Assembly: GCF_964204645.1 (NCBI RefSeq)
Contig: NC_134026.1
Coordinates: 15,100,150 to 15,164,149, forward strand
Source of the DNA: Tubulanus polymorphus
Taxonomy: Eukaryota; Animalia; Nemertea
Length of the DNA stretch: 64,000 bases
Reading direction: 5' to 3'
In this document: one piece after another, positions 5,058-53,925 of the stretch
Position numbering within the stretch: position 1 is the stretch's first letter
How the letters are laid out: each line of letters starts with the position of its first letter
Notes under the pieces: generated by a model
What the model was told of the DNA's origin: nothing
What the model saw: the letters and a program-made list of their open reading frames with translations, nothing else
The model's database searches: none
Translations under genes and position numbers: made by a program

Positions 5058-5083
5058 AATTTCATTAATTGCTAATGACTTAA

Positions 5084-5406
5084 GCCGGACGTAGGTCGGC
5101 TTTGCGACGGCTTGTGACTGCGACGCCATTCGCCAGCGACGATTGTGTCGCAACGACTCCTCGACCTACGCTCCCTTGCGACGGGTTGCGACTGTCAGCA
5201 ACGCCAGTCACAAGGAGTCGCACGTGTTCTGCGACGTTCTTCTTTCTGCGACGCGACACGACTGTCACAACCGACCTACACGCTCTTGCGACTGGCAGAA
5301 ACTAGTCGTACACAGTCGCTGACAATCGTATCGCAACCGACTTGCGCCGAAACTTACGATGCAACGCGAGGATCGCATCGCGACGCAAGGCCGAACTACG
5401 TCCGGC
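5084..5406. mobile_element. MITE with ~25-bp TIRs flanked by TTAA
   Basis: TTAA|GCCGGACGTAGGTCGGCTTTGCG ... CGCAAGGCCGAACTACGTCCGGC|TTAA. The TSD could be TTAA or TA; superfamily not resolved. Confidence 0.8.
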
Positions 5407-5890
5407 TTAAGGTTACTGCGGAGCCCCAGAAATATCTTTTTTTTCGTTCATAGGACCTTTCGCTTAAAAATTCTTTCGTCGGAACAAAATTTATTTCGTT
5501 CCAACAAATAATATTCTGTTCGATTGAACCAATTTGAAAAAATCGTTAGACCATCAGAACATCAAGTTTTTCGTTCGAACAAGTATATTGTCAAAAGTTT
5601 TTTCTCCAAACCAAAATTATTAAGTATTTCGTTCAATTGTACAGAATTGTTATCATTCAAACATTCATTCCAAAAAATTGTTTTTGATCAACCAAATTTT
5701 TTTAACCGGGACAAAGTTTTTCATTTCAACAATAACATAGCTTTTTATTCGAACACATTTTTTGTCAGAATGAAGAAAAGTTTTGGTTCAAACAAAAAGC
5801 GTATTGTTTGATCAAACAGAATTGTTTTCATTCGAACACGATTTTCTTGTCGGAACATTAAGTTTTTTGGTCGAACAGCGTGTGAAGGTC

Positions 5891-6080
5891 ACGACAATTC
5901 AAGATTTTGGTTTTATCGCCCGCGACAATTCATTTTTTGGTTTTGTCGCCCGCGACAATTCAATATTTTGGTTTTATCGCCAGCGACAATTGATTATTTT
6001 GGTTTTATCGCCCACGACAATTGATTATTTTGGTTTAAACGCCCGCTTCGACAATTCATTCTTTTGGTTTTGTCGCCCAC
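5891..6080. repeat. Continuation of the 31-bp satellite
   Basis: About 6 further units of the same consensus. Confidence 0.9.
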
Positions 6081-14533: not shown

Positions 14534-14555
14534 TAGGGTTAGGGTTAGGGTTAGG
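14534..14555 (+). repeat. Interstitial telomeric tract (TTAGGG)~3.5 at the BEL/PLE junction
   Basis: TAGGGTTAGGGTTAGGGTTAGG. Confidence 0.9.
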
Positions 14556-14669
14556 TTTAGAGATAGAGGTTAGGGGACCAAACCGAAGGTTTGGAGACCC
14601 CACTAGTGCACGGGCAGCGGGTTATCCCTGTAAAAAAGTAGTGAGAGTTAATTGTTGTAGTGAGGCGGT

Positions 14670-17007
14670 CTACGGGACGTTCATGCCTCGGGGTGTGTTC
14701 GTGTCGAGTCGTCGTATCCAGTCTTGTTCGGCTGCTTCGCGGATCGGTCTCGTGGAGCCTGGTAGGTGTTGGAGACCGTACACCCGAAAGTGTTCGCGGG
14801 TGTGGTCGGCTTGGTTGAAGTGGTCCGAGACTGGAGTCGAATTCTTCGTTCTGATGCGTGAGACGTGATGAGTGACGCGTTCTCGTAGAGACATTCCGGT
14901 TTGGCCGACGTACAGCATGTTGCACTTGGTGCATTCGATGCAGTATACAATTTCACGGGTCGCGCAATTAATTGTGCTGCGGATCGCGTGCATTTTGTTG
15001 TGGCTGCGGCAAACGGTTGTTTCTCGGACGAGTGGACACGTACGACATCTCGGTGTTCTGCATTTCTTGGTGCCTCGACGTCGGGTTGACGGAGTTCTTT
15101 GAGTAGACCTGGAAATAGAAGAATTGGAAACAACGGAAGTATTTCTGTTACGATGCGGTGAAGAGGGGACTCGGGGAGGGGGTGGCTCCGTGGGTTTGAG
15201 CTGCGACGAAGTTAGGAGATCTTTGAGACTCTTGTGCTTGGTGTAGGCGGTGACCGTGGTTACCTCGTCAGACCGGCCGGTGGCCGTAGCCAGTTCCGTA
15301 AATCTGGTTTGATTTTATTTTGATGTGTCGCAGTTCGCGGTCTTTGTAGCCACGACCTCTGAGTACTTTAAGGACGGTTCCGGACGCTGCGTGTAAGTCC
15401 GAATCGTTATTGCAGATGCGCCGGAACCGGAGAATTTGACTTTTAACTATACCGGAAAATGTGTGTTTAGGGTGAAACGAGGATCGATGTAGTAATTGAT
15501 GCGAATCGGTTGGTTTGAAGTAGACTTTGGTGTCTACTGTGCCACTTGTCTCGAATTGCGGGCCTTTGAAAGTGGTTACGTCCAGGAAGTTGACGCTGGT
15601 GTCGCTGATTTCGAACTTGAGTTTGATGGATCGGCTCACTGTTTGTAGGACGTCGATGAATTGCATCAACGTTTCGCGGCCGTGTTCCCAAACTATGTAG
15701 ATGTTGTCGATGAACCGAGCGTATAGCGATGGTTGGAGTTCGCTTCTGGACAGACCTTCTTTTTCCCATTCGGCTACAAAGATATTGGCATAAGAAGGAG
15801 CAAAACGCTTACCCATTGCGGTACCTTTTACCTGTAAATATGTGTTTTCGTTAAAGTTAAAGTCGTTTTTCTTCAGGCTGATTTCGAGTAGTTTCAGCAG
15901 CTCGGCATCCGGGCGTCCCGGGTTTGGGTTATCTCGGAGAGCTTGTCGGATGCTGGCGATACCCTCTTCGTGGGGGATGTTGGTGTAGAGCGAATCGATG
16001 TCCATGGTGACGAGTAACGCATCGGCGCTAAATTGTTTACCGGCCAAAATATCTAGAAAGTGGTTGGTATCTTTGACGTACGACGGGTGACCGCGGGCGA
16101 TCGGCTGCAAATAGTAGTCGATCCATTCCGAAATTTCGTAGGTTTCGGAGCCGCAGTCGGAGACGATCGGTCTCCCCGGCGGTACGCGATCGGGTACCGT
16201 CCACTTCTCGCGTTCTTTATGGATTTTGGGAAGCAGATAGAACTGCCTCTGTTTCGGATTATCGGGCGGTAATAGATATTCGGCGGTTTTTAGCGGGATG
16301 ATTTTTCGTCGAGCCATATTTTCGATGATTTCGCGAATTTCTTCCCCGGTCTGTTCGAAGATCGGTTGCTGCAGCGGCTGATAATACTCGAGATCGGCTA
16401 GTTGGAGCATGGCTTCGTGGACGTAGTCGTCGCGGTCCATGATAACCGTAGCGGAACCCTTATCGGCGGCTTTGATGACAATATTAGTGTTGTCACGCAG
16501 CTGCTGGAGGGCTTCGCGTTCCTGTTTAGTGAGGTTATCATTTACGCGACGCGTATCCCTGGTTTGTTGAGCCAATTCGTGCGCGTCGTTGCAGAACCCG
16601 GCGATTACTGGTTCTATTTCATCCGGAGCCCAACTGCTGGGCAGACGGAAACGCGGAGCCTCGCGGTCCGGTTTGTCTCGGAAGTGATGGTCGAGTTTCA
16701 CTAGCCGGTTGAATCGGCACACTCCCTTGGTGCGCTCGGTCGCGGCGGCATCAGAACCGATTTTTGGAGTCGGGCAATAAGTGAGGCCCTTTCGGAGTAG
16801 CTGATGTTGCGCCGGACTTAGGCGGAGTGAACGTGTGAGGTTGACCACCGGGCTCCCGAGAGCGGTGACCGGATCGCGTCGCGCTTGGTTTGGTGCCGGT
16901 TCTTCGTGTTCGTCGGACCTGGAAATGGAAGAAATCAGAGAAGCATTGGTTAATTCCGGTTGATTTAACTCACCAATAGTGGACCCGTTGGTCTCACTAA
17001 TACTTAG
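14670..17007 (-). pseudogene. PLE unit 1 ORF2 (RT + GIY-YIG), disrupted
   Basis: Catalytic FIDD changed to FIDN. A ~120-bp deletion with filler near 15310 causes a frameshift before the GIY-YIG domain. Confidence 0.9.
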
Positions 17008-18563
17008 TTTAAACCACTGAGCCAGTGGTCCAGCAGGGTGTTAGCTGTACCACGGTTCCAGTGGATCCCGTCTCCAACAACTCTGAAGCGTCGATCATCG
17101 ATGGGTGGTATCGCGGTGACGTCGTCGTGATTCTCGAGGAATTCGTTGAACTTCCGGGCGAACTGCTGGTGTTCGCGGGTCGTGTTGAGTTGAACGAAGT
17201 GGACGAACGAGTGCTGATACTTCTTGACTGCGGCGTTGATCAGGCGCTGTGTGGTCTTCCTGGCGGTCGCTTCGAAGTTGTTGTCGCGGTTGTTGATTCC
17301 GACGCTGATGATCACCGTATCCGGGCGATCTCGGCGCTCCGGTACAGCATCGATCAGGTCGGCGAGATGAGCTATCTTGCAGCCGGGGAAGCTCTCGATC
17401 TGGACGTCATCCGGACGGCGGCTTGATGTGATGTTACTCAGATTTGAGTCACCAATCACCAGAATGGGTCGCCGGGTTGGTGGCAGACTCCAATCCTGTT
17501 TCTTCCGACCCGTATTCGGATGACGGCGAACTTCCTGGGGCGCCATCGGTCTCGGTGTTGGCGTCGGACTTCGCGCTGGCAGTAGGCGCCCTGGTGACCT
17601 GTAATGAGACGGAGAGCTGGAAAGAGAAGAAGAGAGAGACGGCGTCGGACTGCTGGTTGGTGCGGTCGGCGTTCTCTGCGGCGGCGGCGGCGTCGGGTTT
17701 CGAGGCGGCGGCGTCGGACTTCTCGGTGGCGTCGGACTTCTTGGTGGCGGCGGCGGCGTCGGCATCGGACTTCTCGGTGGTGGCGCCATTCTGGTTGGTG
17801 GCGTCCTGGTGACATCCGCGTAGCTTCTCGGTGACCTGGAATCAGAAAAAGAAGGAGGCGCTGTGGGCGCGGCGGGCGCGGCTGCGGTTGGTGCAGGCGT
17901 CCTCGGCGTCGCGGGCTTTCGAATCTTCCGGCTCGGTCTCGGCGGCGGACGAATCTTCGGCTCCGTGGGTGCCTCCTGGTGGTGTGACCTGAAATGAGAA
18001 GGGGAAGAAGGTGGGTTAGATAGGACATTTCTGAGTTTGTCAGACAGAGCCTGACCGCGGAATTTCGACCGCAAATCCAGCGCGATGTTGAAAAGCCGGA
18101 TCGTTCCGGGGCTCAGACGGGAGCCGAAATTCCTCCGGGCCCATGTCAGGGCGACATCCTGTGCTGATAGACAGTCCGGCAGAGGATCACCCATTAGCTC
18201 AACAAATGTGGCAGCGTAATGGATGGTCAGCTCTTTCGAAACTGTCTCCATCCAGACGTCCGCGGCAGCGTGCAGCTGCACCGTTACTGCTTCGGTGCAA
18301 GCCGCCGGCCGCAGGAACATCTTCAGATGGTCCTTCTTCCTCCGAATCGCTTTCGGACCAGAGCTCAACTGGGCAAGGTGGTGCGCCACTTGAAGAGCTC
18401 TATAATAGGTTTTCGGCGACATCCCGGGTTGCTGGTGTCGCTCAGGGCGTCCTCCGCCCTTGCTGGTCTTCTCAGCTGGTGGTCGTTTCTTCTTTCGAGT
18501 AGATCGCTCCATTGACAGATATTTCGGCGAGGTTGCCTTCGTCAGTGTCAGTGCAGGAATCAT
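17004..18563 (-). CDS. PLE unit 1 ORF1: basic N-terminus, Pro/Ser-rich repeats, C-terminal SGNH/GDSL hydrolase
   Basis: ILVIGDSN (block I), SFPGCK (II), ISVGINN (III), GDGIHW (V); RSPTPPP repeats; 519 aa open. Confidence 0.85.
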   Translation of the reverse strand: MIPALTLTKATSPKYLSMERSTRKKKRPPAEKTSKGGGRPERHQQPGMSPKTYYRALQVAHHLAQLSSGPKAIRRKKDHLKMFLRPAACTEAVTVQLHAAADVWMETVSKELTIHYAATFVELMGDPLPDCLSAQDVALTWARRNFGSRLSPGTIRLFNIALDLRSKFRGQALSDKLRNVLSNPPSSPSHFRSHHQEAPTEPKIRPPPRPSRKIRKPATPRTPAPTAAAPAAPTAPPSFSDSRSPRSYADVTRTPPTRMAPPPRSPMPTPPPPPRSPTPPRSPTPPPRNPTPPPPQRTPTAPTSSPTPSLSSSLSSSPSHYRSPGRLLPARSPTPTPRPMAPQEVRRHPNTGRKKQDWSLPPTRRPILVIGDSNLSNITSSRRPDDVQIESFPGCKIAHLADLIDAVPERRDRPDTVIISVGINNRDNNFEATARKTTQRLINAAVKKYQHSFVHFVQLNTTREHQQFARKFNEFLENHDDVTAIPPIDDRRFRVVGDGIHWNRGTANTLLDHWLSGLN

Positions 18564-19259
18564 GCTGAACTAGCAGCAGCAGCAGATAAAAAAGACAAAC
18601 GCGCGGAGCGCGTTTTTAATGCTCGAGAGTGGTGGCCACTCTCCTACATTCAGGACGCGTAGGTGCATGATTATTTGCTTGATATGATGATAGGTATATG
18701 AGTTGAACTATTATGAGATGAACTAAGGGGGATGTGGGTGGTGTGATATTTGTGTGAGTGTGAAGGTACTGGTGGAAGGATTCAAACAAAGGTACATACA
18801 GAACGGACAGTTTTTATTTTTTAGGCGTTTTTGTTTGGTTCGGTCCTTATCAGGAGTTTGTTAGTGATTAGTTATAATATTTTTTTTTTTTTTTTTTTTT
18901 TTTTCTATAAATAGTGATTAATATAATACGTATATATCACAAGAGTCTATGATATAATATATGGTAGATATATATGTATATAATATGATACACAAAAATA
19001 GTGATTTTCCTCCGTTAAGGGGAGTCGCGATATAGTTAGAATACTTTGTCAATTACTATATACAAAACTTATAATTTCTTAGAAATGTTAATAAGAGTAT
19101 ATAGTTCTACTGCATATAGTTCGGTTCACGTGATGTGTTGTGTAAGGAGTAGCGACCTAGATACGGGCTACCTATATAGTTCTTGTAACACAAAGAAATC
19201 TTCCATTCAATTCTCCGACTACGCGGGTGTCGGTTCGTAGTAGAGTACACGCTATAGAG

Positions 19260-22013
19260 TTATAGAATTGACTTAAACGCTTCCACGATGTCTGAAGACG
19301 GCCATGGACTCGAAATATCGTAAAAGACACTCCTTAGTATCGGGTTATTTCGGTTGGAATTTAGGTAATTTTTCGTTAAGAGTTTAAAGCGCTGTTCCAC
19401 AGTTTCTATTCGAGCTTGCTTATGTAGGTCTGCCGTTCTTGTATAGCGCGGTTGGCCTAGAATGATTCGTAAGCATTTATTTTGGTGTATTTGAAGGCGG
19501 TCTAACTGACTACATGGGCAAGTTACCAGTATCGGAGCTCCGTATTCATAGATTGATCGAATGAGTAATTTAAAAGCAGTGAGTATGTATTCCATTTTTA
19601 CGCGGTTTCGTTTCAAAATAGCTAGTATTCCAATTCTTTTATTTGCCTTAATTAATCTCTCTGTTATTTCCAGATTCCAGCGTAAATTAGACGAAAAAGT
19701 AATTCCGAGGAATTTGGTAGAATTTGATAGCGGTATTTGTTGGCCGTGAACAGTGTGCTCAGTGTATGGGTCGGTATTTATTAGGCGACTAAAGTGTATA
19801 CTAACACATTTAAGCGCGTTTACTTTTAGCCTCCACATGTCACTCCATTGAGTTAGTTTGTCTATCGATTTTTGATGGAGATTTTCGATTGTTTTAGTTT
19901 TTACATTGTGCGTGTTCCATAGACTCATATCGTCTGCGAACAATGACGATTGACTATAATGACTAGCTTTAATTGTATCCGAGGGAAAATCGTTTATATA
20001 GATGATAAAAAGTGTCGGCGAGAAAATCCCTCCTTGAGGGACTCCAGCGTTTATTTGCCTTGGCTGGCTAATACACCCTTCATTAGCGACTTTAAAAGTT
20101 CGACCCTGTAGATAGTTTTTAAGTAAGAGCTTAAAGTTGGTTGGAATAGATAAATGATTAATTTTGTAGATAATTCCGTCGTGCCAAAGTTTATCGAACG
20201 CTTTCTCTAGGTCGAAAAATGTAGCACGCGTGCATTGCCGACGTTTTAGGCCTTTAGCGATATCATGAGACATTTTTAATATTTGATCTATGGTCGAATG
20301 TCCTTTTCGAAAACCAGCTTGTATTTCGGTAAAGAAGTTGGTATTTTCTAAGTAATCTGTTAATTTATTGTTCATGATTTTTTCGAAAATTTTGCCGATC
20401 GAGTTGGTTAAACTGATAGGACGCAAATTTTTGCAAAGTGTAGCATCTTTGCCGGCTTTTGGAATCATAGTAATTTTCGCAGACTTCCAGAATGATATAT
20501 AGTAGCCATTTCTTTGGCAGTAGTTAAAAATGTGACATAGGTGGGTTAAAAATATCGAAGGACAATTTTTAATAATCGCGTTCGTGATTCTATTTTCTCC
20601 GGGTGCTTTATTAAGTTTCAACCGTTTGATATAGCGTTTTATGTCTAGTTCAGTAATTGTTTCGTTTAATATATGACCCGTGTCTTCTTCAGTATTTTCG
20701 TATACGAAGTTTCTATTGGATTCTTCTACGAAACGTTTATGTTGATCGCTGAAGTTTGGATTAGTAGGCGTTTGAAAAACGTCGAATAAAAAGTCGGCGT
20801 ATAGTTCGACGATATCTTTATCGTTACTCGCGGTTTGATCGTTATAAGCTAAATTCGAAATAATGTTTTTTTTTATCAACGTTACGTTAATGTTTTTAAT
20901 ACCTCGCCAGAATTTACTCGAGTTCGGATTCGATGTATTTATGTCATCTAGTAGTTTTTTAGTCTTGTTATTTTTGTTGTCTCGCATAAGTTTTCTAATT
21001 TCAAGAGTTAATCTATTATATTGTGATTTTAAATAAGGATGACGCGTTTTAACGTATTCTCGTTTTAAATAACGTCGTCGTTTAATTATTAATTCTATAT
21101 TACGAGGTAAGCGGTCAACTCGTTTCGATCTTTTATTATTTTCCATGTTATTTTGTCTTTTAATTTCGTTAATTATTTCTAATTCTATTTTGCTGTAAAT
21201 ATTTTCCACCTGCTCGTTAGTAGTTAGATTTGTTGTATCGATCGCTGAGAGCTTGTCAGATACGTTGTCGTGGAATTTTGACCAGTCGATATTTCTCGTA
21301 GACAGTAAGTCGGTATATAGTTCGCGTTCGATGACTTTCGGACGCGTAGAAATATTTATTAAAATTGGTCGGTGATCACTATCGACGCTATCGCAAACAT
21401 GAAAAGAGTTTACTTTAGGGAATATGTGCGAACTACAAAGCGCTCTATCTAGAATATCAGTGTGTCCTCTCACGCGGTAATCATAATAGGTATGGTCTTT
21501 TGTATTTAATGAAATGAGACCGTGCGTATTAATAATGTTCGTTAGATTAATTCCGGCTGTATTAGTCGTACGGTTACCGAGTATCGGGTGTTTAGCGTTC
21601 AAATCACCCAAAATGAAAAAATTTTGATTCGATCGTTCAATGACTTCTACAAATTGTTGTTCGAGAATTTTTGCAGGTGGGCAATAAACCCCTATGACAT
21701 TGAAAGTACTGTTATCGTTATTTTTCACCGATAAAGCTATATATTCAGTTGAGTCGCTGTTAAAATTAAGAGTCAGTTGTTCGATAAACAGGTCACGGTT
21801 GTACAGAGCCATTAAACCCCCTCAGGATTTCCCTGTCCTCGGCTTATGGATTTTCTTATAATTTTTCGGATTAAAATTTATCGTTTTGCATTTAGTTTCT
21901 GCTACGAAAAGAATATCGATATTTTTATTCAAAAGTAATTCAGTTACTTCTGGCAATTTTTGCTTCACGCCGTTTATGTTTAAATAACATATATTCAGAG
22001 TAGACTTAGCCAT
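19260..22013 (-). pseudogene. LINE ORF2: AP endonuclease + reverse transcriptase, one in-frame TGA at 21822-21824
   Basis: ICYLNING, FVAETK, GDLNAKH and SDHRP (APE); LRPISL, QAGFR, DLEKAFD, GVPQGG and LFADD (RT). ORFs 21822-22013 and 19260-21812 are in the same frame. No RNase H seen. Confidence 0.92.
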
Positions 22014-22084
22014 GAGGAAAAGTTAGACAATTGTTTAAAAGAAAGTTAATGTGTTAGATTAAAATCAGTACATCGCTTACGATT

Positions 22085-22807
22085 TTATTTAGCTAGATTT
22101 GTGTCGCTAGCAGATAACGGTCTCGTTATTTTTATCTTACTCAGCCGGTGTGAGTTTTTCCCGACGGTATGTTCGTATATATCTTTACCGCTGATTTTTA
22201 AGTTAGTATGATCTAATGTGCTTTCGCTTATCCTCGCACAGATGTCGGATAGGCTATTTTCTTTGTTCATACGTACTCTGTAAATTATGTCTGCAATTAG
22301 CGATAGAAATGATGTTTCGTTTAGTATAATGATATTATTCGGTGGAGGGCTTTCTTTCGGTTTATCTAGTGAACTTCTACGTTTCGGTATAGGTCTTTGG
22401 TTTTTATTTTGTTCCGATGAAAAGGGTTTCTCGGATACAGATTGTTTTTTCTCAGATACTGTTTTTTTCTTTCGTGGTGTTGGTATCGGTTTCCTACGCT
22501 CTTTCGTTTCACTCGGTCTAGAGTTGGATTTCGACCTCGACCTCGACCTAGATCTCTCTCGTTGTTTCTTTTTAATTTCTTCCTGCACAAATGTGCAGGC
22601 TTTGTCGAAACTGCGGTGTTCTCCACCGCAGTTCGAACAAACGTAATTTTCTTTTATTTTACACTCATAGGTTTGGTGAAAGTGGGCGCACTTCGCGCAA
22701 ATTGCTTTGTCTTCTGTGCAGTTATATTGATTATGCCCAAACATCTGGCATTTCCTACATTGGAGTAGTGTTGGGCTGCGTCTATAAGCTACGCATTTCT
22801 TCCTCAC
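22085..22807 (-). CDS. LINE ORF1 (gag-like) C-terminal part with three CCHC knuckles
   Basis: CRKCQMFGHNQYNC, CAKCAHFHQTYEC, CSNCGGEHRSFDKAC, then an RS-rich basic tract. 5'-truncated. Confidence 0.88.
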   Translation of the reverse strand: MRKKCVAYRRSPTLLQCRKCQMFGHNQYNCTEDKAICAKCAHFHQTYECKIKENYVCSNCGGEHRSFDKACTFVQEEIKKKQRERSRSRSRSKSNSRPSETKERRKPIPTPRKKKTVSEKKQSVSEKPFSSEQNKNQRPIPKRRSSLDKPKESPPPNNIIILNETSFLSLIADIIYRVRMNKENSLSDICARISESTLDHTNLKISGKDIYEHTVGKNSHRLSKIKITRPLSASDTNLAK

Positions 22808-22822
22808 ATCATGCTGAACTAG

Positions 22823-25021
22823 GATTAGACACGGGTTTTTATACACGCAGCGCGCAACAAGTGAACAGTATTTGAGTTAGAAGTTAAGTGACCATATGAG
22901 ACCTTGTGATCTAGACTAATTGTACTTCTGTGATCAAGCTAATAGACAAACTAGGGGTCTGACTAATTATGCCTTTGATCCAGAGTGACTAGAAAACAGC
23001 ACTAATTATGGCCCTTGATCTAGCTGTTGAATAGTTTGCTTTGATGTATAGTTCTAAAGATCTAAAGAACGGCGTGTCTAATATAGAATTGAAAAGTTTA
23101 TTTCGATATAACCTGATAAATACTCAAAGTGTTTTCTATAAAGAGAAATCTAGAATATGTATTATTAATATACGTGAACCGGAATGTTCGAAATATGTCC
23201 GAGTTCAGTTTCAAAATTGCTTAATTCCTAATTAGTTTAGATGCGTTAATTAGCGGTGCGCGGCCGAGGCGTATTCCGATATACGCGTGTATACTAAATA
23301 GTCGTAAATGGTGAAATCCGGTTCTTAGTTAATCAAGTTTTCTCCGTATTCTAAAGCTTTTAAGAGCGGATTTTGAAATATCTACGCGGTATTCTACCGA
23401 AAATTGGATGAATTAGACAGCGCGGCGTCGGCGATTTAGTAGGAAGTTATAACCCGTAAGATCTAAATTACTGAGTGAGCGCGGGTGGTTAATTAGCCCT
23501 AATTATGGGTGACGAGTTTTGATAGAAATGTCTTACTAATACGTCTGTTTTAATTCTAAGTTCTTAAATATAATTCTATTAGATAAACTACGCTTATTTA
23601 GAGTTATTAGGATCGAGTAAAGCTATGTGAACTTGAACATGTGACAAATATATTCAGACCGGAGCGCGGGTATTCAGTAAATCGGTTTAAGCTTGCGTAG
23701 TTTGAGTGGTTCAAAAACACTATGATCTCTTCTTTAATCCGAAGGTTGAAATATATACGTGATATAAAACTCTTTTTGAATCGGGAATATTGGGCTGTGT
23801 TCTTTGAAAAAAAAAAACTGATGAGTTTGAAGGCGTCGTAACTGCGATTTTGTATAGAATTGAGTCGGATAATTAGTCAAGAGGCGCAGGTGGCCGATCG
23901 GTCACTAATTATGAGTGACTCGTAAACAGTGATTGATGTCCGTGGACTATTATTTATCCTATAAACTTCTTATACTTCTACAACCTATAGTGCGGTTTTT
24001 GAATATAGCTACTAATACTTTTGAGCGATCTCATTAGAATTGTTATGCGAAAATAAACTGTCTGTTTTAGAGAAATTTGAAACTTGACACCCGGGTCTAT
24101 ATAGAGTATGTTCCAAGAGTTGGCGCGTAGATACGATAATAGTTAATTAGGACGTAGCGGGTTAGGTCCCCGACCGAACGTTATAGATTAAACGGAGGTT
24201 AATTAGGGTGCCGCGGGTTCGAGTCCCGACCAGGCGCCGTTTAGTAATTGAATAGTTCTATTCTAAATGTTTTTTACCTATTCTGGATTCCTTTTAATTC
24301 TGAATCTTTGACGGATACAATAGTACTTTTCAGATGTTTCTACGATATAATCTTAGTGCCGACGCATATTTTCAAAATAAATAAGAGCGGTGGACAGGTT
24401 ACCGGTATCTAACGCGGGGCACCGGCAACCTGTCAGTACTAGCGGTTAATTTCGGAGCGGCGGGTACGGTTCCCGAGTATTCTCCGGAGCTTAATTCGGG
24501 TGCCGCGGGTTCGAGTCCCGATCAGGCGCGCCGTTTTAGTAATTGAGTATATTCTTACCTATTCTAGATTCCCTTTCTTTCTAAATTTATAATAGATTAA
24601 TTAATACTTTTCGGGTGTTTCTATGATATAATCACAGTGCTGACGCATATTTTCGAAATAGATAATAGCGGTGGACTGGTTACCGGTTTCTATCGTCCTG
24701 GGACAGGCAACCAGTCTGTACTAGCGGTTACGGTTCGGTTCCCGATATCGCGCTTTTGTTTATTTTTCTAACTGTTTCTGATATTTGGTCTGTCTTCTTA
24801 CTTACTGAATTTCGATTGAGTTTTCAAAGTAAAGCAGAGAGAACTAATTAAAAGATAAAAGGTTGATGATTCCTGTGGAGCTTGTGATCTTGGAGTTTGT
24901 TTTGTACTCTGTCTCTGAGCGGGTTTCTGCTTCAGGCGACGGAGGATGATTCTGCAAATAGATTGATGATTAATAATTAATCAGTTAAGATAATTTACGA
25001 GGGAAACCTGGCACGGGCTAA
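22823..25021 (-). promoter_or_regulatory. PLE unit 1 long non-coding leader (~2.2 kb), probably intron-containing
   Basis: Repeated at 29139-31284; no long ORF. Donor-like sites CA|GTAAGT (24805) and AG|GTAAGA (24558); acceptor-like TTCAG just before the ORF1 ATG; internal ~290-bp duplication. Confidence 0.6.
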
Positions 25022-25142
25022 GGTTAGGTTTAGAGATAGAGGTTAGGGGACCAAACCGAAGGTTTGGAGACCCCACTAGTGCACGGGCAGCGGGTTATCC
25101 CTGTAAAAAAGTAGTGAGAGTTAATTGTTGTAGTGAGGCGGT

Positions 25143-27602
25143 CTACGGGACGTTCATGCCTCGGGGCGTGTTCGTGTCGAGTCGTCGTATCCAGTCTTGT
25201 TCGGCTGCTTCGCGGATCGGTCTCGTGGAGCCTGGTAGGTGTTGGAGACCGTACACCCGAAAGTGTTCGCGGGTGTGGTCGACTTGGTTGAAGTGGTCCG
25301 AGACTGGAGTCGAATTCTTCGTTCTGATGCGTGAGACGTGATGAGTGACGCGTTCTCGTAGAGACATTCCGGTTTGGCCGACGTACAGCATGTTGCACTT
25401 GGTGCATTCGATGCAGTATACAATTTCACGGGCCGCGCAATTAATTGTGCTGCGGATCGCGTGCATTTTGTTGTGGCTGCGGCAAACGGTTGTTTCTCGG
25501 ACGAGTGGACACGTACGACATCTCGGTGTTCTGCATTTCTTGGTGCCTCGACGTCGGGTTGACGGAGTTCTTTGAGTAGACCTGGAAATAGAAGAATTGG
25601 AAACAACGGAAGTATTTCTGTTACGATGCGGTGAAGAGGGGACTCGGGGAGGGGGTGGCTCCGTGGGTTTGAGCTGCGACGAAGTTAGGAGATCTTTGAG
25701 ACTCTTGTGCTTGGTGTAGGCGGTGACCGTGGTTACCTCGTCAGACCGGCCGGTGGCCGTAGCCAGTTCCGTAAATCTGGTTCGGATGTTACGGGCTAGG
25801 GTTCGGTTGGCTTCGGAGTGAGGTAAGATAAGCGGTAAACGCTTTTTCGGCGGTTCGTCGGCCCGTTGTTGTTCTCGTAGATCTCGTTCGGCGTGGTGCC
25901 GTAGAGCTTGGCTTTTGATGTGTCGCAGTTCGCGGTCTTTGTAGCCACGACCTCTGAGTACTTTAAGGACGGTTCCGGACGCTGCGTGTAAGTCCGAATC
26001 GTTATTGCAGATGCGCCGGAACCGGAGAATTTGACTTTTAACTATACCGGAAAATGTGTGTTTAGGGTGAAACGAGGATCGATGTAGTAATTGATGCGAA
26101 TCGGTTGGTTTGAAGTAGACTTTGGTGTCTACTGTGCCACTTGTCTCGAATCGCGGGCCTTTGAAAGTGGTTACGTCCAGGAAGTTGACGCTGGTGTCGC
26201 TGATTTCGAACTTGAGTTTGATGGATCGGCTCACTGTTTGTAGGACGTCGATGAATTGCATCAACGTTTCGCGGCCGTGTTCCCAAACTATGTAGATGTC
26301 GTCGATGAACCGAGCGTATAGCGATGGTTGGAGTTCGCTTCTGGACAGACCTTCTTTTTCCCATTCGGCTACAAAGATATTGGCATAAGAAGGAGCAAAA
26401 CGCTTACCCATTGCGGTACCTTTTACCTGTAAATATGTGTTTTCGTTAAAGTTAAAGTCGTTTTTCTTCAGGCTGATTTCGAGTAGTTTCAGCAGCTCGG
26501 CACCCGGGCGTCCCGGGTTTGGGTTATCTCGGAGAGCTTGTCGGATGCTGGCGATACCCTCTTCGTGGGGGATGTTGGTGTAGAGCGAATCGATGTCCAT
26601 GGTGACGAGTAACGCATCGGCGCTAAATTGTTTACCGGCCAAAATATCTAGAAAGTGGTTGGTATCTTTGACGTACGACGGGTGACCGCGGGCGATCGGC
26701 TGCAAATAGTAGTCGATCCATTCCGAAATTTCGTAGGTTTCGGAGCCGCAGTCGGAGACGATCGGTCTCCCCGGCGGTACGCGATCGGGTACCGTCCACT
26801 TCTCGCGTTCTTTATGGATTTTGGGAAGCAGATAGAACTGCCTCTGTTTCGGATTATCGGGCAGTAATAGATATTCGGCGGTTTTTAGCGGGATGATTTT
26901 TCGTCGAGCCATATTTTCGATGATTTCGCGAATTTCTTCCCCGGTCTGTTCGAAGATCGGTTGCTGCAGCGGCTGATAATACTCGAGATCGGCTAGTTGG
27001 CGCATGGCTTCGTGGACGTAGTCGTCGCGGTCCATGATAACCGTGGCGGAACCCTTATCGGCGGCTTTGATGACAACATTAGTGTTGTCACGCAGCTGCT
27101 GGAGGGCTTCGCGTTCCTGTTTAGTGAGGTTATCATTTACGCGACGCGTATCCCTGGTCTGTTGAGCCAATTCGTGCGCGTCGTTGCAGAACCCGGCGAT
27201 TACTGGTTCTATTTCATCCGGAGCCCAACTGCTGGGCAGACGGAAACGCGGAGCCTCGCGGTCCGGTTTGTCTCGGAAGTGATGGTCGAGTTTCACTAGC
27301 CGGTTGAATCGGCACACTCCCTTGGTGCGCTCGGTCGCGGCGGCATCAGAACCGATTTTTGGAGTCGGGCAATAAGTGAGGCCCTTTCGGAGTAGCTGAT
27401 GTTGCGCCGGACTTAGGCGGAGTGAACGTGTGAGGTTGACCACCGGGCTCCCGAGAGCGGTGACCGGATCGCGTCGCGCTTGGTTTGGTGCCGGTTCTTC
27501 GTGTTCGTCGGACCTGGAAATGGAAGAAATCAGAGAAGCATTGGTTAATTCCGGTTGATTTAACTCACCAATAGTGGACCCGTTGGTCTCACTAATACTT
27601 AG
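25143..27602 (-). CDS. PLE ORF2: reverse transcriptase + Cys linker + GIY-YIG endonuclease (Neptune-like); no ATG start, frame open back to the ORF1 stop
   Basis: KAADKG, YLLPKIHK, GRPIVS, DIDSLYTNIP, GTAMG, RFIDD, FLD; CRTPRCRTC linker; IVYCIEC..C...YVGQT...R..HH, E.DWI..LDT..PRGMN. Confidence 0.95.
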   Translation of the reverse strand, partial: LSISETNGSTIGELNQPELTNASLISSISRSDEHEEPAPNQARRDPVTALGSPVVNLTRSLRLSPAQHQLLRKGLTYCPTPKIGSDAAATERTKGVCRFNRLVKLDHHFRDKPDREAPRFRLPSSWAPDEIEPVIAGFCNDAHELAQQTRDTRRVNDNLTKQEREALQQLRDNTNVVIKAADKGSATVIMDRDDYVHEAMRQLADLEYYQPLQQPIFEQTGEEIREIIENMARRKIIPLKTAEYLLLPDNPKQRQFYLLPKIHKEREKWTVPDRVPPGRPIVSDCGSETYEISEWIDYYLQPIARGHPSYVKDTNHFLDILAGKQFSADALLVTMDIDSLYTNIPHEEGIASIRQALRDNPNPGRPGAELLKLLEISLKKNDFNFNENTYLQVKGTAMGKRFAPSYANIFVAEWEKEGLSRSELQPSLYARFIDDIYIVWEHGRETLMQFIDVLQTVSRSIKLKFEISDTSVNFLDVTTFKGPRFETSGTVDTKVYFKPTDSHQLLHRSSFHPKHTFSGIVKSQILRFRRICNNDSDLHAASGTVLKVLRGRGYKDRELRHIKSQALRHHAERDLREQQRADEPPKKRLPLILPHSEANRTLARNIRTRFTELATATGRSDEVTTVTAYTKHKSLKDLLTSSQLKPTEPPPPRVPSSPHRNRNTSVVSNSSISRSTQRTPSTRRRGTKKCRTPRCRTCPLVRETTVCRSHNKMHAIRSTINCAAREIVYCIECTKCNMLYVGQTGMSLRERVTHHVSRIRTKNSTPVSDHFNQVDHTREHFRVYGLQHLPGSTRPIREAAEQDWIRRLDTNTPRGMNVP

Positions 27603-27608
27603 TTTAAA
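27572..27608 (-). promoter_or_regulatory. Candidate -1 programmed ribosomal frameshift signal (also at 16977-17013)
   Basis: GGT TTA AAC TAA gives an in-phase U_UUA_AAC heptamer, followed by a 7-nt spacer and hairpin TAGTGAGACC-AACG-GGTCCACTA. The -1 frame is ORF2. Confidence 0.8.
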
Positions 27609-29128
27609 CCACTGAGCCAGTGGTCCAGCAGGGTGTTAGCTGTACCACGGTTCCAGTGGATCCCGTCTCCAACAACTCTGAAGCGTCGATCATCGATGGG
27701 TGGTATCGCGGTGACGTCGTCGTGATTCTCGAGGAGTTCGTTGAACTTCCGGGCGAACTGCTGGTGTTCGCGGGTCGTGTTGAGTTGAACGAAGTGGACG
27801 AACGAGTGCTGATACTTTTTGACTGCGGCGTTGATCAGGCGCTGTGTAGTCTTCCTGGTGGTCGCTTCGAAGTTGTTGTCGCGGTCGTTGATTCCGACGG
27901 TGATGATCACCGTATCCGGGCGATCTCGGCGCTCCGGTACAGCATCGATCAGGTCGGCGAGATGAGCTATCTTGCAGCCGGGGATGCTCTCGATCTGGAC
28001 GTCATCCGGACGGCGGCTTGATGTGATGTTACTCAGATTTGAGTCACCAATCACCAGAATGGGTCGCCGGGTTGGTGGCAGACTCCAATCCTGTTTCTTC
28101 CGACCCGTATTCGGATGACGGCGAACTTCCTGGGGCGCCATCGGTCTCGGTGTTGGCGTCGGACTTCGCGCTGGCAGTAGGCGCCCTGGTGACCTGTAAT
28201 GAGACGGAGAGCTGGAAAGAAAAGAAGAGAGAGACGGCGTCGGACTGCTGGTTGGTGCGGTCGGCGTTCTCTGCGGCGGTGGCGTCGGACTTCTCGGTGG
28301 CGTCGGACTTCTTGGTGGCGGCGGCGGCGTCGGCATCGGACTTCTCGGTGGTGGCGCCATTCTGGTTGGTGGCGTCCTGGTGACATCCGCGTAGCTTCTC
28401 GGTGACCTGGAATTAGAAAAAGAAGGAGGCGCTGTGGGCGCGGCGGGCGCGGCTGCGGTTGGTGCAGGCGTCCTCGGCGTCGCGGGCTTTCGAATCTTCC
28501 GGCTCGGTCTCGGCGGCGGACGAATCTTCGGCTCCGTGGGTGCCTCCTGGTGGTGTGACCTGAAATGAGAAGGGGAAGAGGGTGGGTTAGATAGGACATT
28601 TCTGAGTTTGTCAGACAGAGCCTGACCGCGGAATTTCGACCGCAAATCCAGCGCGATGTTGAAAAGCCGGATCATTCCGGGGCTCAGACGGGAGCCGAAA
28701 TTCCTCCGGGCCCATGTCAGGGCGACATCCTGTGCTGATAGACAGTCCGGCAAAGGATCACCCATTAGCTCAACAAATGTGGCAGCATAATGGATGGTCA
28801 GCTCTTTCGAAACTGTCTCCATCCAGACGTCCGCGGCAGCGTGCAGCTGCACCGTTACTGCTTCGGTGCAAGCCGCCGGCCGCAGGAACATCTTCAGATG
28901 GTCCTTCTTCCTCCGAATCGCTTTCGGACCAGAGCTCAACTGGGCAAGGTGGTGCGCCACTTGAAGGGCCCTGTAGTAGCTTTTCGGCGACATCCCGGGT
29001 TGCTGGTGTCGCTCAGGGCGTCCTCCGCCCTTGCTGGTCTTCTCAGCTGGTGGTCGTTTCTTCTTAGATCGCTCCATTGACAGATATTTCGGCGAGGTTG
29101 CCTTCGTCAGTGTCAGTGCAGGAATCAT
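27599..29128 (-). CDS. PLE unit 2 ORF1: Pro-rich + SGNH/GDSL hydrolase (509 aa)
   Basis: IGDSN, PGCK, VGIND and DGIH motifs; near-identical to 17004-18563. Confidence 0.85.
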   Translation of the reverse strand: MIPALTLTKATSPKYLSMERSKKKRPPAEKTSKGGGRPERHQQPGMSPKSYYRALQVAHHLAQLSSGPKAIRRKKDHLKMFLRPAACTEAVTVQLHAAADVWMETVSKELTIHYAATFVELMGDPLPDCLSAQDVALTWARRNFGSRLSPGMIRLFNIALDLRSKFRGQALSDKLRNVLSNPPSSPSHFRSHHQEAPTEPKIRPPPRPSRKIRKPATPRTPAPTAAAPAAPTAPPSFSNSRSPRSYADVTRTPPTRMAPPPRSPMPTPPPPPRSPTPPRSPTPPPQRTPTAPTSSPTPSLSSFLSSSPSHYRSPGRLLPARSPTPTPRPMAPQEVRRHPNTGRKKQDWSLPPTRRPILVIGDSNLSNITSSRRPDDVQIESIPGCKIAHLADLIDAVPERRDRPDTVIITVGINDRDNNFEATTRKTTQRLINAAVKKYQHSFVHFVQLNTTREHQQFARKFNELLENHDDVTAIPPIDDRRFRVVGDGIHWNRGTANTLLDHWLSGLN

Positions 29129-29138
29129 GCTGAACTAG

Positions 29139-31284
29139 GATTAGACACGGGTTTTTATACACGCAGCGCGCAACAAGTGAACAGTATTTGAGTTAGAAGT
29201 TAAGTGACCATATGAGACCTTGTGATCTAGACTAATTGTACTTCTGTGATCAAGCTAATAGACAAACTAGGGGTTTGACTAATTATGCCTTTGATCCAGA
29301 GTGACTAGAAAACAGCACTAATTATGGCCCTTGATCTAGCTGTTGAATAGTTTATTTCGATATAACTTAATAAATACTCAAAGTGTTTTCTATAAAGAGA
29401 AATCTAGAATATGTATTATTAATATACGTGAACCGGAAAGTTCGAAATATGTCCGAATTCAGTTTCAAAATTGCTTAATTCCTAATTAGTTTAGATGCGT
29501 TAATTAGCGGTGCGCGGCCGAGGCGTTTTCCGATATACGCGTGTTTACTAAATAGTCGTAAATGGTGAAATCCGGTTATTAGTTAATCAAGTTTTCTCCC
29601 TATCTAAAGCTTTTAAGAGCGGATTTTGAAATATCTACGCGGTATTCTACCGAAAATTGGATGAATTAGACAGCGCGGCGTCGGCGATTTAGTAGGAAGT
29701 TATAACCCGTAAGATCTAAATTACTGAGTGAGCGCGGGTGGGTAATTAGCCCTAATTACGGGTGACGAGTTTTGATAGAAAAGTCTTACTAATACGTCTG
29801 TTTTAATTCTAAGTTCTTAAATATAATTCTATTAGATGAACTACGCTTATTTAGAGTTATTAGGATCGAGTAAAGCTATGTATAGGGGAGCCGATCTTGA
29901 ACATGTGTCAAATATATTCAGACCGGAGCGCGGGTATTCAGTAAATCGGTTTAAGCTTGCGTAGTTTGAGTGGTTCAAAAACACTATGATCTCTTCTTTA
30001 ATCCGAAGGTTGAAATATATACGTGATATAAGACTCTTTTTGAATCGGGAATATTGTGCCGTGTTCTTTGATACAAACTGATGAGTTTGAAGGCGTCGTA
30101 ACTGCGATTTTGTATAGAATTGAGTCGGATAATTATAAATTAGTCAAGAGGCGCAGGTGGCCGATCGGTCACTAATTATGAGTGACTTGTAAACAGTGAT
30201 TGATGTCCGTGGACTATTATTTATCCTCTAAACTTCTTATACTTCTACAACCTATAGTGCGGTTTTAGAATATAGCTACTAATACTTTTAAGCGATGTCA
30301 TTAGAATTGTTATCCGAAAATAAACTGTCTGTTTTAGAGAAATTTGAAACTTGACACCCGGGTCTTTATAGAGTATGTTCCAAGAGTTGGCGCGTAGATA
30401 CGATAATAGTTAATTAGGACGTAGCGGGTTAGGTCCCCGACCGAACGTTATAGATTAAACGGAGGTTAATTAGGGTGCCGCGGGTTCGAGTCCCGACCAG
30501 GCGCCGTTTAGTAATTGAATAGTTCTATTCTAAATGTTTTTACCTATTCTGGATTCCTTTTAATTCTGAATCTTTAACGGATACAATAGTACTTTTCAGA
30601 TGTTTCTACGATATAATCTTGGTGATACGCATATTTTCAAAATAAATAAGAGCGGAGGACTGGTTACCGGTATCTAACGCGGGGCACCGGCAACCGGTCA
30701 GTACTAGCGGTTAATTTCGGAGCGGCGGGTATGGTTCCCGAGTATTCTCCGGAGCTTAATTCGGGTGCCGCGGGTTCGAGTCCCGATCAGGCGCGCCGTT
30801 TTAGTAATTGAGTATATTCTTACCTATTCTAGATTCCCTTTATTTCTAAATTTATAATAGATTAATTAATACTTTTCGGGTGTTTCTATGATATAATCTC
30901 AGTGCTGACGCATATTTTCGAAATAGATAATAGCGGTGGACTGGTTACTGGTTTCTATCGTCCTGGGACAGGCAACCAGTCTGTACTAGCGGCGGGTTCG
31001 GTTCCCGATATCGCGCTTTTGTTTATTTTTCTAACTGTTTCTGATATTTGGTCTGTCTTCTTACTTACTGAATTTCGATTGAGTTTTCAAAGTAAAGCAG
31101 AGAGAACTAATTAAAAGATAAAAGGTTGATGATTCCTGTGGAGCTTGTGATCTTGGAGTTTGTTTTGTACTCTGTCTCTGAGCGGGTTTCTGCTTCAGGC
31201 GACGGAGGATGATTCTGCAAATAAATTGATGATTAATAATTAATCAGTTAAGATAATTTACGAGGGAAACCTGGCACGGGCTAA
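29139..31284 (-). promoter_or_regulatory. PLE unit 2 long non-coding leader
   Basis: Copy of 22823-25021. Confidence 0.6.
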
Positions 31285-31584
31285 GGTTAGGTTTAGAGAT
31301 AGAGGTTAGGGGACCAAACCGAAGGTTTGGAGACCCCACTAGTGCACGGGCAGCGGGTTATCCCTGTAAAAAAGTAGTAAGAGTTAATTGTTGTAGTGAG
31401 GCGGTCTACGGGACGTTCATGCCTCGGGGCGTGTTCGTGTCGAGTCGTCGTATCCAGTCTTGTTCGGCTGCTTCGCGGATCGGTCTCGTGAAGCCTGGTA
31501 GGTGTTGGAGACCGTACACCCGAAAGTGTTCGCGGGTGTGGTCGACTTGGTTGAAGTGGTCCGAGACTGGAGTCGAATTCTTCG
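31285..31584 (-). repeat. PLE upstream pseudo-LTR (3' 300 bp of a further 5'-truncated unit)
   Basis: Near-identical to 25022-25321 (end of GIY-YIG + 3' tail); abuts Polinton B polB. Confidence 0.9.
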
Positions 31585-34500
31585 CAGTTAAATGTTCTGG
31601 GCAATAAGGTAAGTTTCTTGTTTTAAACTTTATATTTTCAGGATATTCTAAATCAACTACAAAGAAATAACCAATTGGTGCTTCATCTTTTAAACTCGCA
31701 ATTGCGCTTTCCCAATCAATTTTATCATCATTTTCAACTTCTGTTAATATAAAATTTTTATATGGTTGAGGTTGCATCATTGCCCAACCATATAAATTAT
31801 TGGCGTCAATATATAATAATTTATATTCATCATTTGCTTTAAAATATCTATCTCCCATAACACCACTAATTCCACCTCTAATTGATTTTTCAAATAATAA
31901 AACCATGTCTGGTTCTTTTAATAAATCTAATTCTACATTTGTATATTTTAAACCACATTGCCAGGTTAAACCGGGGCTTGAATAACAATAACAAGGATCA
32001 ACATTAAAATGATTCAAGTTAACTTCTCTAAATTTTTCAAATATGTCAGCCAATATCATAACATCTGATTTTAATAAATCAACTAATTCACCATGATTTT
32101 TCATCTTAAAATGGTTCCAAATATTTAATGTTCTATTAAACATGATCATAAAATTGTTCTTTTAATAATTCTGTTACATTAAAATCATCATGTGTTTTAT
32201 AAAATGAATAAGGAATTGCGCCTTTATATCTCAATAATTTAAAATCTTGTTCATTTGGATAATAATATCGAGTTATTATAAAATCATTATCAACTAAACT
32301 TTTTGATAAATTATCTAATGAACTTGCTAGAAATCTATAAGAATCTAAAAATCTAATGCAACCAAATTGAAATGAAATATAATTTTCGGATGTTTTAGCT
32401 AATAGTTTAAAATCATATTTTCTTACATTTACACCATTCATAGCATTATATTCTTCTATTTCTTGATTAATTGCACCCAATTTTCCTGATTATTGTTTTA
32501 TAAATAGATGGGTATCATAGCCCGATAAATTATGAAATAATATTGGTACGAAATTAACTTTCTTAGCTTGTAAATTACAATCTTCATGAGCAGCTCCACG
32601 ATATTTTGAATTTAAATGATCATGATCTCTAACTTTTTTATCAAATGAATAAAAACGTTTTTCACAATAACAACAATGAGTTGCATAATTAAAATCAATT
32701 TCATCTTCTTTTTTCATAACTATTCTTTTATTTTTGTTTAATAATTTTGCAAAATCACTTTCTAATTCAATTATTTTATTACAAAAATCATTAACTACAT
32801 TTTCACCTCTAAAAGAAATATATTGACTTTCATATAATTCAGGATAATTTGATTTTATATAAATTCCATAAGCAGCAGCTCTTTGATGAAATTTTTTAAT
32901 TGTATTTATAATTGGTGGGTCTTGAATTATATCTTCATTTAGTTCATTTCCTTTATCCATTGATTTTAAAAATTGCTTTTTGTTATATATTTCTTTTCTA
33001 TCTTGATCAGTTAATTCTTTATTCAACGATTCAAAATCCCCATAAATTACAAATGGAACAATATTCTTAAATTTATGATTAGTAAAATTCAATTTATAAT
33101 CTTTTTCTGTTGGCATTATTAATTTACAAAAATCTTTATTATCACATAATTCTTTATGTTTTAATAATGTATTCTCAGTCATAAATTCAGATAAACATTT
33201 TCTACATAGATATATTTTATTATGGTGATCACTTTCTGTTCCAAAGAATAAATCAATTTGTTTTAACCACATATAATGTTCATTTTCATCTTTTTGGTAA
33301 TATAACAAATCTATAGCATTTTCATCATCATAATATTCTGTTAAATATAAAGCTTCCAATGTATAATCTTTAATATTTTCACCTTTTGTCTTTGGTAATT
33401 GCATTAATTCGAATACATTTATTTTTAAATTATTAACTTTTTCTATTTTAGGAATCATTTTTATAGTTACTGGATATTGATCAATTTTATATAATGTTTC
33501 ATATTTCCGGTAATTTGTTATTCTAGAACTATGTTTAATATCTTCTGTTGGATGTAAACAATGTAAACTAATAATTGACCATAGAAAACATTCATTATCT
33601 TCATTTTGAATATTTATTACTGCTTTTGTCGTAAATGGTAATTTAATATAATTGATGCTTTAATATCCTTTTCTGTTGTAAAGTTTGAGTCATTTTTAAA
33701 CATTGTTTTAGTTTTTGATGTTTCATTCCTTTTTGTATTATAAACATTTAAATCTAAAAATATAATTCGATTCAATGTTAAACCAGAACCCTCAAAATAT
33801 CTTTCTTTAATATGACGTTTAAATTCATTAAATATTTTTTCTAACTTCTCTTTTATTTGTGTTTTTGAAATTATTTCTTCAGAGAGTGTTTGAATATTAT
33901 AATACATTTTTTCTCCTGACTTTATAAAACTTACTTTCCCAGAGATACTAATTTTTGGATATTCAATATCTGTTATCAAATCTAGTATTTTTTCTATTAT
34001 TTCATTAAATTTACTATAATCTTCTATTGTTGTACCTTTAAAAAATCTAAATATAATAGCTGCAGGTCCAATTTTACTATGTAATGTTTCTAAAATTTCA
34101 ATTGTATCTTTTATTTCTAGTGAATCAATATAATTTCTAACATTTTCCATGTAGGGTTTATTTGAAATGGATTTAGTTTTTGAAGTTGGTTTTTTTACTT
34201 TTTGAGGTTTATCATCGAAATAATCTTTTCCTAAAACATTATTACTCAAATTTTGATGGTGTTTTTGTGATTCGAGATGTCTATTATAATTCTTTTTTAC
34301 TATAAATTCATTACAAACTTCACATTTTATTTCATCCACATTCATATTTTCTAATCACTCTTTTCTTTCATTGGAATTTTCTGAAGTTTCAAAATCTATA
34401 ACATTTTTTATATGATTTGAAGATTTTTCATGTTTAGATTTATTAGATTTATCGATGTATTTTTTACAATATGGGCAATAATATTGATTTGTATTAACAT

Positions 34501-53909: not shown

Positions 53910-53925
53910 TTTTTTCACTATATAA

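Follow-up and report, generated by a model that had tools for sequence, protein, structure and literature searches.

An esterase-bearing ORF1 and a putative -1 frameshift site in a Penelope-like element of Tubulanus polymorphus

Esterases have been described in retroelements before, and in Penelope-like elements (PLEs) among them. One report notes the domain in PLEs, with Neptune1_Ren as the example (PMC3905857), and another mentions that fish and molluscs have canonical Neptune-like PLEs with esterases (PMC5408684). The first of these also demonstrates esterase activity and liposome binding for the protein encoded by the first open reading frame (ORF1p) of ZfL2-1 (CR1-1_DR). According to the Fig. 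1 legend of PMC8557442 and its preprint (10.1101/2021.04.23.441226), ORF1 of PLEs can be, or often is, set apart by a frameshift with a pseudoknot. Minimal hammerhead ribozymes are reported for PLEs, Neptune included (PMC4209133). These papers are drawn on here in part; PMC3846280, PMC6431247 and 10.64898/2026.07.22.740005 served as background only. We analyzed 64,000 nt of AT-rich eukaryotic DNA from Tubulanus polymorphus (NC_134026.1, positions 15,100,150 to 15,164,149; hereafter the window), which contains a PLE with an esterase domain in ORF1 and an endonuclease (EN) joined to its reverse transcriptase (RT). Features of this element are on the minus strand and are given in window coordinates.

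ORF1 (27599–29128) encodes 509 aa from its first ATG, or 492 aa from Met18 at 29077. It overlaps ORF2 (25143–27635), an 830-aa open frame lying -1 to ORF1. ORF2 carries a PLE-type RT with motifs N1 and DKG and the core motifs, a CX4CxxC linker finger, and, at the C-terminus, a GIY-YIG endonuclease with its Cys and His zinc ligands, so ORF1 does belong to an EN-bearing (EN+) PLE, as the original prediction had proposed. The first ATG of ORF2 is codon 201, downstream of RT motifs N1 and DKG. A slippery heptamer, U UUA AAC (27602–27608), stands in phase immediately 5' of the ORF1 stop, and 7 nt past it is a predicted hairpin with a bulged A at 27589 (27572–27594). A second copy of the element in the window (unit A, below) has the same signal, with the heptamer at 17013–17007 and an identical junction, and one independent contig spans the junction unchanged. 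From these sequence features and their conservation, we infer with a probability of about 0.8 that ORF1 is the first gene of a two-gene EN+ PLE, expressed like gag-pol through a -1 slip at U UUA AAC.

In layout, this element most resembles the Neptune-like PLEs. Neptune1_Ren has a similarly sized ORF1 that carries an SGNH domain at its C-terminus (S383–S538), and no coiled coil or Arg-rich motif is assigned to it in the part of its description drawn on here; its closeness to our element is judged by layout, not by a tree. A C-terminal GIY-YIG endonuclease with a Cys-rich linker finger is also a shared feature. The finger between RT and endonuclease, at ORF2 residues 701–709, is of the CX2-5CxxC form that marks Neptune and Nematis (PMC8557442). 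Because of this finger and the esterase ORF1, membership of the Neptune clade is likely, on sequence grounds; our RT tree, made by a quick method with support from the Shimodaira–Hasegawa-like approximate likelihood ratio test (SH-aLRT) only, holds relatives and no named references. The best ORF2 match was a T. polymorphus RefSeq protein at 96% identity. The passages on Neptune-like PLEs used here (PMC3905857; PMC5408684) carry no slippery site, hairpin, helical N-domain or NADAR domain.

We surveyed related elements, taking the best 77 of 580 confirmed candidates from a single metagenome scan by RT relatedness. ORF1 adjoined RT in 61 of these 77 loci, so the predicted linkage extends beyond this genome. 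The RT frame of 14 of the 16 unpaired loci begins no more than 335 nt from the contig start (L037 and L038 are the exceptions). In every one of the 61 paired loci, among which are some near-duplicates (60 junctions are distinct), ORF2 overlaps ORF1 in the -1 frame. A canonical in-phase heptamer was found in 55 of them, versus 2.5 expected from the rest of ORF1, and UUUAAAC was the heptamer used in 36. The signal is present across both main RT clades and is shared by elements whose RT frame lacks an endonuclease (8 of the 61 are so labelled, one being a broken copy). Two independent protein sets bear the footprint of the heptamer as well. FK[LP], its -1 reading, was seen in 23 of 53 sufficiently long ORF2 relatives (2.85 expected), and the last two positions of ORF1 are Leu in 135 and Asn in 121 of 150 relatives. 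The latter are the best 150 of 901 ORF1 relatives found at E ≤ 0.001 among 1.84 billion representatives, and the counts of ORF1 residues below refer to this set. Upstream of motif N1, 45 of 58 ORF2 frames lack a Met. In one relative, P0106 (951 aa), the esterase end and RT-GIY-YIG are fused in a single frame. Two counts speak the other way: 6 of the 61 paired loci lack a canonical heptamer, and 13 of the 58 ORF2 frames do have a Met upstream of N1. Overall, these data suggest that two ORFs with a -1 frameshift between them are the norm for this PLE lineage.

Evidence for a stimulatory structure downstream of the heptamer was mixed. Folding was strongest 6–36 nt past the heptamer, at -1.78 ± 0.33 kcal/mol versus shuffles (the best of 27 windows, 60 sites). 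In a test of one register of the bulged hairpin, it was found in 15 of 20 clade members (the window, 18 loci of its clade and L022) and in 0 of 200 shuffles. Several observations count against such a structure. The register was chosen post hoc, after the sequences had been viewed. The hairpin of the window is modest (z of -1.8) and equally stable in 11 of 200 shuffles, the relatives' mean z over 60 nt downstream is only -0.27, and neither fixed-column covariation nor consensus folding of the 20 junctions gave a signal. A pseudoknot as a general stimulator was rejected, a strong one being predicted for 2 of 59 relatives versus 15 of 885 shuffles. Thus, the positional profile and the register test point to a structure, whereas the pseudoknot and covariation tests were null. 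Like the PLE frameshift of PMC8557442, the one proposed here joins an upstream ORF1 to RT, but the signal resembles a short bulged hairpin rather than the pseudoknot named in its Fig. 1 legend. A literature search, with Arkhipova et al. 2017 (Terminons) and Gladyshev and Arkhipova 2007 outside its reach, found no description of a PLE slippery site.

Retroviral gag-pol and coronavirus 1a/1b are expressed by -1 frameshifting at an X XXY YYZ heptamer (U UUA AAC in coronaviruses), followed by a 7-nt spacer and a downstream structure, with structural protein made in excess of polymerase. Our element resembles these systems solely in the logic of its expression; neither a protease nor a capsid or nucleocapsid domain was detected in it. 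The domain layout, RT linkage, -1 overlap and slippery site, and the conservation of each, were observed in the sequences. Given established -1 frameshift biology, most ribosomes would stop at the TAA and release free ORF1 protein, while a minority would pause at the hairpin, slip -1 at U UUA AAC and yield an ORF1-RT-EN fusion. This fusion, of ~1,330 aa (~1,310 from Met18), would be the sole in-frame route to the RT motifs from N1 to DKG, and the slip fraction would set how much coat-like protein is made per enzyme. If it resembles ZfL2-1 ORF1p, surplus ORF1 protein may self-associate, and may coat and assemble the element RNA via its basic stretches and helical domain. In the weakest step, which draws on the same analogy, the esterase would act on or bind an acyl substrate.

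The C-terminal domain of ORF1 (residues 346–509; 27602–28093) is an SGNH esterase, judging by sequence and model. All four predicted blocks were located in both window copies: GDS at 361–363, G384, GxN at 412–414 and DxxH at 488–491, with Ser363, Gly384, Asn414, Asp488 and His491 as the key residues. Pfam scans of ORF1 covered 27 chosen loci and 4 proteins, plus the first 60 of 92 long relatives. The match of the window domain to GDSL_2 (Lipase_GDSL_2) fell below the cut-off (E of 0.0013; 19.7 of 32.9 bits), a cut-off passed by 1 of the 60 scanned relatives (P0136). With a single sequence, the best PDB match was the ZfL2-1 ORF1 esterase, 4c1b, at E of 0.025. With a profile built on 24 sequences, 4c1b was matched at E of 6.9e-11 and the next entry at 0.0023, in agreement with the predicted relation to LINE (long interspersed nuclear element) ORF1 esterases. 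An AlphaFold2 model from a 5-row alignment had a mean predicted local distance difference test score (pLDDT) of 53.6, with higher values in the C-terminal domain (~58–89 by block over residues 351–509). Foldseek returned 37 PDB matches at E ≤ 0.001 for this model, all SGNH/GDSL among the matches listed, with OatA, PAF-AH, TesA and 4c1b at the top, consistent with a flavodoxin-like alpha/beta fold. The fold and profile searches thus both return SGNH hydrolases, as had been anticipated.

All four of Ser, Gly, Asn and His are retained by 144 of the 148 relatives whose sequence covers these sites. The description of the domain as catalytically complete is apt for the residues, which are intact; activity is a prediction. 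Some data weigh on the other side. Strict DxxH is found in 120 of 149 relatives, and catalytic residues are lost in several (Ser is present in 55 and His in 53 of 60 rows), among them P0106, whose catalytic His is replaced. Between the two window units, the esterase differs by five amino-acid changes and two silent ones, too few for a selection test. The isoelectric point (pI) of the domain is neutral, at 6.7, versus 10.8 for the liposome-binding ZfL2-1 esterase; pI is no more than a hint as to lipid binding, and the membrane targeting put forward in the original prediction is a hypothesis. Both proteins have the same catalytic S, G, N, D and H and a C-terminal esterase following a poorly conserved linker, and no RNA recognition motif was found in ORF1, as for ORF1p of the ZfL2-1 type. 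They differ in host, ZfL2-1 residing in a CR1/L2 LINE rather than a PLE; in the region upstream, a five-heptad coiled coil there and a modelled six-helix domain here; and at His191, which together with Ser228 is termed transposon-specific and which is replaced by Thr/Ser here (Thr410 in the window, Ser in 112 of 150 relatives). Terminon/Athena elements and Vesta LTR (long terminal repeat) elements likewise bear SGNH (GDSL) ORFs with intact residues, but, in the account of PMC5408684 used here, as accessory genes or as ORF3, in elements that either lack an endonuclease or are of the LTR kind, whereas here the domain is the C-terminus of ORF1.

At the other end of ORF1, a minimal hammerhead ribozyme motif (29078–29115; predicted fold z of -1.7) covers codons 5–17, with its predicted cut at 29083/29082, 5 nt before Met18. 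A motif of the same kind was found in 27 of the 61 related loci, and where both the hammerhead and the opening of ORF1 are visible, the frame opens only past the predicted cut in 20 of 22. This overlap and this pattern make Met18 the likelier start than Met1. An Rfam scan returned no ribozyme and no frameshift element, only two chance T-loop matches. The N-terminus had been described as basic, which is true of residues 18–47 (28988–29077), a short segment of pI 11 that is unstructured in the model, but residues 48–180 (28589–28987) form a conserved folded domain. This N-domain is alignable across 33 sequences with three invariant residues, was found in 85 of the 92 relatives of at least 400 aa, and is modelled as six helices (pLDDT 91), one of them 35 residues long. 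In Pfam, no family was common to more than 2 of the 33 members, and Foldseek gave no match at E ≤ 0.001 in PDB or viral models. The best Z in a structure comparison was 6.7 among 48,161 chains, and the Atlas gave weak unnamed matches only. Absence of a family or fold match does not prove a new fold. Homology of the N-domain to the RT N-terminus was considered and was unsupported, profile matches on ORF2 relatives being marginal (2 of 120, E > 0.004).

Between the N-domain and the esterase is a disordered Pro/Ser/Thr/Arg linker (residues 181–345; 28094–28588), with 30% Pro and 19 S/T-P sites. The original prediction saw RSPTPPP repeats here, varying between copies through in-frame indels. Repeat number does differ, with four loose R[SN]P[TM]P units in the 509-aa copy and five in the 519-aa copy of unit A, but the exact unit occurs once in the 509-aa copy, and the repeat is short (an 18-nt unit, 2.7 copies, by Tandem Repeats Finder) and not conserved. 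As for the indels, 8 aa are one linker repeat unit, but the other 2 aa lie in the N-terminus, after residue 21; both insertions are also carried by contigs from other runs. Linkers of 32 related loci are 94–496 aa long with 4–19% Pro, so the RSPTP units are local, and phospho-regulation is unsupported by conservation.

In relatives, this slot can hold another enzyme. A NADAR (ADP-ribose-removing) domain, not found in the window ORF1, stands before the esterase, where the window ORF1 has its Pro-rich linker, in 38 sequences among the best 150 relatives and in 12 of the 61 loci (L003, L005, L006, L010, L016, L032, L040, L058, L060, L064, L067 and L070; also protein P0003). Of the 92 long relatives, the first 60 gave 25 NADAR matches in Pfam, 23 above the cut-off. 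In P0227, an AlkB-like oxygenase occupies the position instead. A literature search, with the same two papers outside its reach, found no description of NADAR in PLEs; the material consulted in PMC12477816 places it in Gypsy elements and in ORF1 of an oyster Tx1 LINE, not in PLEs.

What the esterase acts on can be read in more than one way. Lipid is one possible substrate, as it is for ZfL2-1. A tentative alternative, with a real though minority chance, accepts the frameshift and takes the domain to be a deacylase of a small-molecule, protein or nucleic-acid ester, not a membrane anchor, and one of several swappable maintenance enzymes. The catalytic residues are much better conserved than surface charge (pI is below 7.5 in 15 of 147 related domains, that of the window included), and the NADAR and AlkB-like domains of the linker slot fit an exchange of enzymes. 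Moreover, liposome binding by ZfL2-1 is independent of the active site (PMC3905857), which leaves the conserved triad to be explained in some other way. On the other hand, related domains have a median pI of 9.5, with 117 of 147 at 9 or above, as binding of acidic lipids would predict, and in the same report ZfL2-1, the nearest solved relative, binds liposomes while its peptide deacetylase activity was undetectable. A more far-reaching proposal, which we regard as rather doubtful, gives ORF1 of this large PLE lineage the role of a Gag-like scaffold. It would combine an unnamed helical fold, an exchangeable cargo site (for NADAR, an AlkB-like oxygenase or, as here, a Pro-rich spacer) and an esterase at the end, and would be joined in cis to RT by the bulged-hairpin -1 frameshift. 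Its enzymes would strip host marks (ADP-ribose, alkyl, acyl) from element RNA, cDNA or proteins, a counter-defence as in RNA viruses.

It is quite unlikely that ORF2 is instead translated from a spliced or separately initiated message, leaving the slippery site as a relic. Candidate splice sites do exist. Just past the ORF1 stop are two of them, donor-like at 27568 and acceptor-like at 27514, but no nearby donor bypasses that stop in frame, and after the 27514 acceptor no ATG occurs before codon 201. Five pyrimidine-tract AG|GTC motifs (28560, 28407, 28194, 27514 and 25582) are on the sense strand, in one codon phase and all on AGG codons, at ~10 times the rate in relatives; matching in-phase donors were not seen. 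Across 222,578 nt of relatives, acceptor-like sites are unenriched (28 sense, 80 antisense), whereas the heptamer and -1 phase are near-universal. PLEs are known to retain introns (PMC8557442), and XP_074646585.1 (96% identical) has two different first residues and ends before the endonuclease, as if spliced, which counts against the frameshift reading. Contigs of other runs contained no GT..AG joint at the candidate sites, and these contigs are uninformative on expression or splicing. Separately, the RefSeq model of a sister copy (protein P0004) ends in SDEG-stop, which fits a donor-like site after the RT thumb (25739) joined to an acceptor-like site at 25101, with the endonuclease skipped; this end may be an annotation artefact. 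That ORF1 is a captured host gene or chance neighbour of RT has next to no probability: the window copies belong to one array and alone could not show linkage, and PMC8557442 gives the clade a single ORF, but this reading is refuted by the pairing in 61 of 77 loci, with the same order, overlap and phase over two deep RT clades; in most unpaired loci the RT frame begins near a contig start.

The two ORF1 copies in the window lack independence, being units of one tandem array. Unit B comprises the ORFs described above and a long 3' untranslated region (22808–25142) that runs up to the insertion point of a LINE. Unit A (14542–18573) has an intact 519-aa ORF1 (17004–18563), a broken ORF2 and TTAGGG-like repeats at its end. 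The ORF1 copies are ~98% identical in DNA, and both are free of internal stops and frameshifts. In ORF2 of unit A, a net loss of 122 nt before the endonuclease detaches that domain. Between the units is the LINE itself (18574–22807), 5'-truncated and of the apurinic/apyrimidinic (AP) endonuclease-RT kind. It is bordered by a 15-bp duplication (22822–22808 and 18573–18559), so units B and A are one head-to-tail array that was split. Upstream of unit B, a partial unit (29124–31584) consists of an endonuclease end and 3' untranslated region ~97% identical to 22808–25321. Such a partial-tandem pseudo-LTR and the predicted hammerhead motif are both PLE hallmarks.

Other features of the array and its surroundings were noted. 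The TTAGGG-like repeats of unit A (14534–14575) come straight after the ORF2 stop, and contigs of other runs also exit the element at TTAGGG-like loose ends (25015; 31278–31285). These ends are hints of an EN+ element priming on telomere-like repeats. Contigs cover the ORFs several-fold more deeply than the long 3' region. The 3' untranslated region contains a two-copy repeat of ~250 bp, 79% identical (24193–24730; 30460–30992), and each copy has, on the plus strand, a motif resembling a tRNA T-loop (box B-like). Among the surveyed relatives, seven endonuclease-less ones with the same ORF1 and frameshift (L035, L043, L055, L062, L069, L074 and L076) nest, at two or more points of the tree, among EN+ elements. 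Elsewhere in the window, broken AT-rich ORFs occur at 467–1192, 9357–10778, 31585–34345, 48864–51631 and 53331–60122; two match protein-primed DNA polymerase B, which suggests decayed Polinton/Maverick-like elements. The upstream end of the PLE array sits inside one polymerase gene. A tandem satellite with a 31-bp unit, in ~80 copies, occupies 2489–6080.

ORF1 of this element is real and well preserved. Judging from the parts of the literature used here, esterase ORF1s of Neptune-like PLEs are already in print (2013, 2017), as in part is the frameshift, and the window esterase enlarges by one a class that dates from 2013. What the present analysis would add is the frameshift survey, an N-domain without a named family, and the NADAR slot. 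With the two-ORF, -1 frameshift layout as the probable rule, gene callers would be expected to clip the RT N-terminus and overlook ORF1. PLEs are the sister group of telomerase, and how their RT is expressed and packaged is poorly understood. This intact, recently active-looking unit offers a small system in which to study this, with a slippery site of 7 nt, a predicted hairpin of 23 nt, an esterase that has all its active-site residues, and a foldable N-domain.

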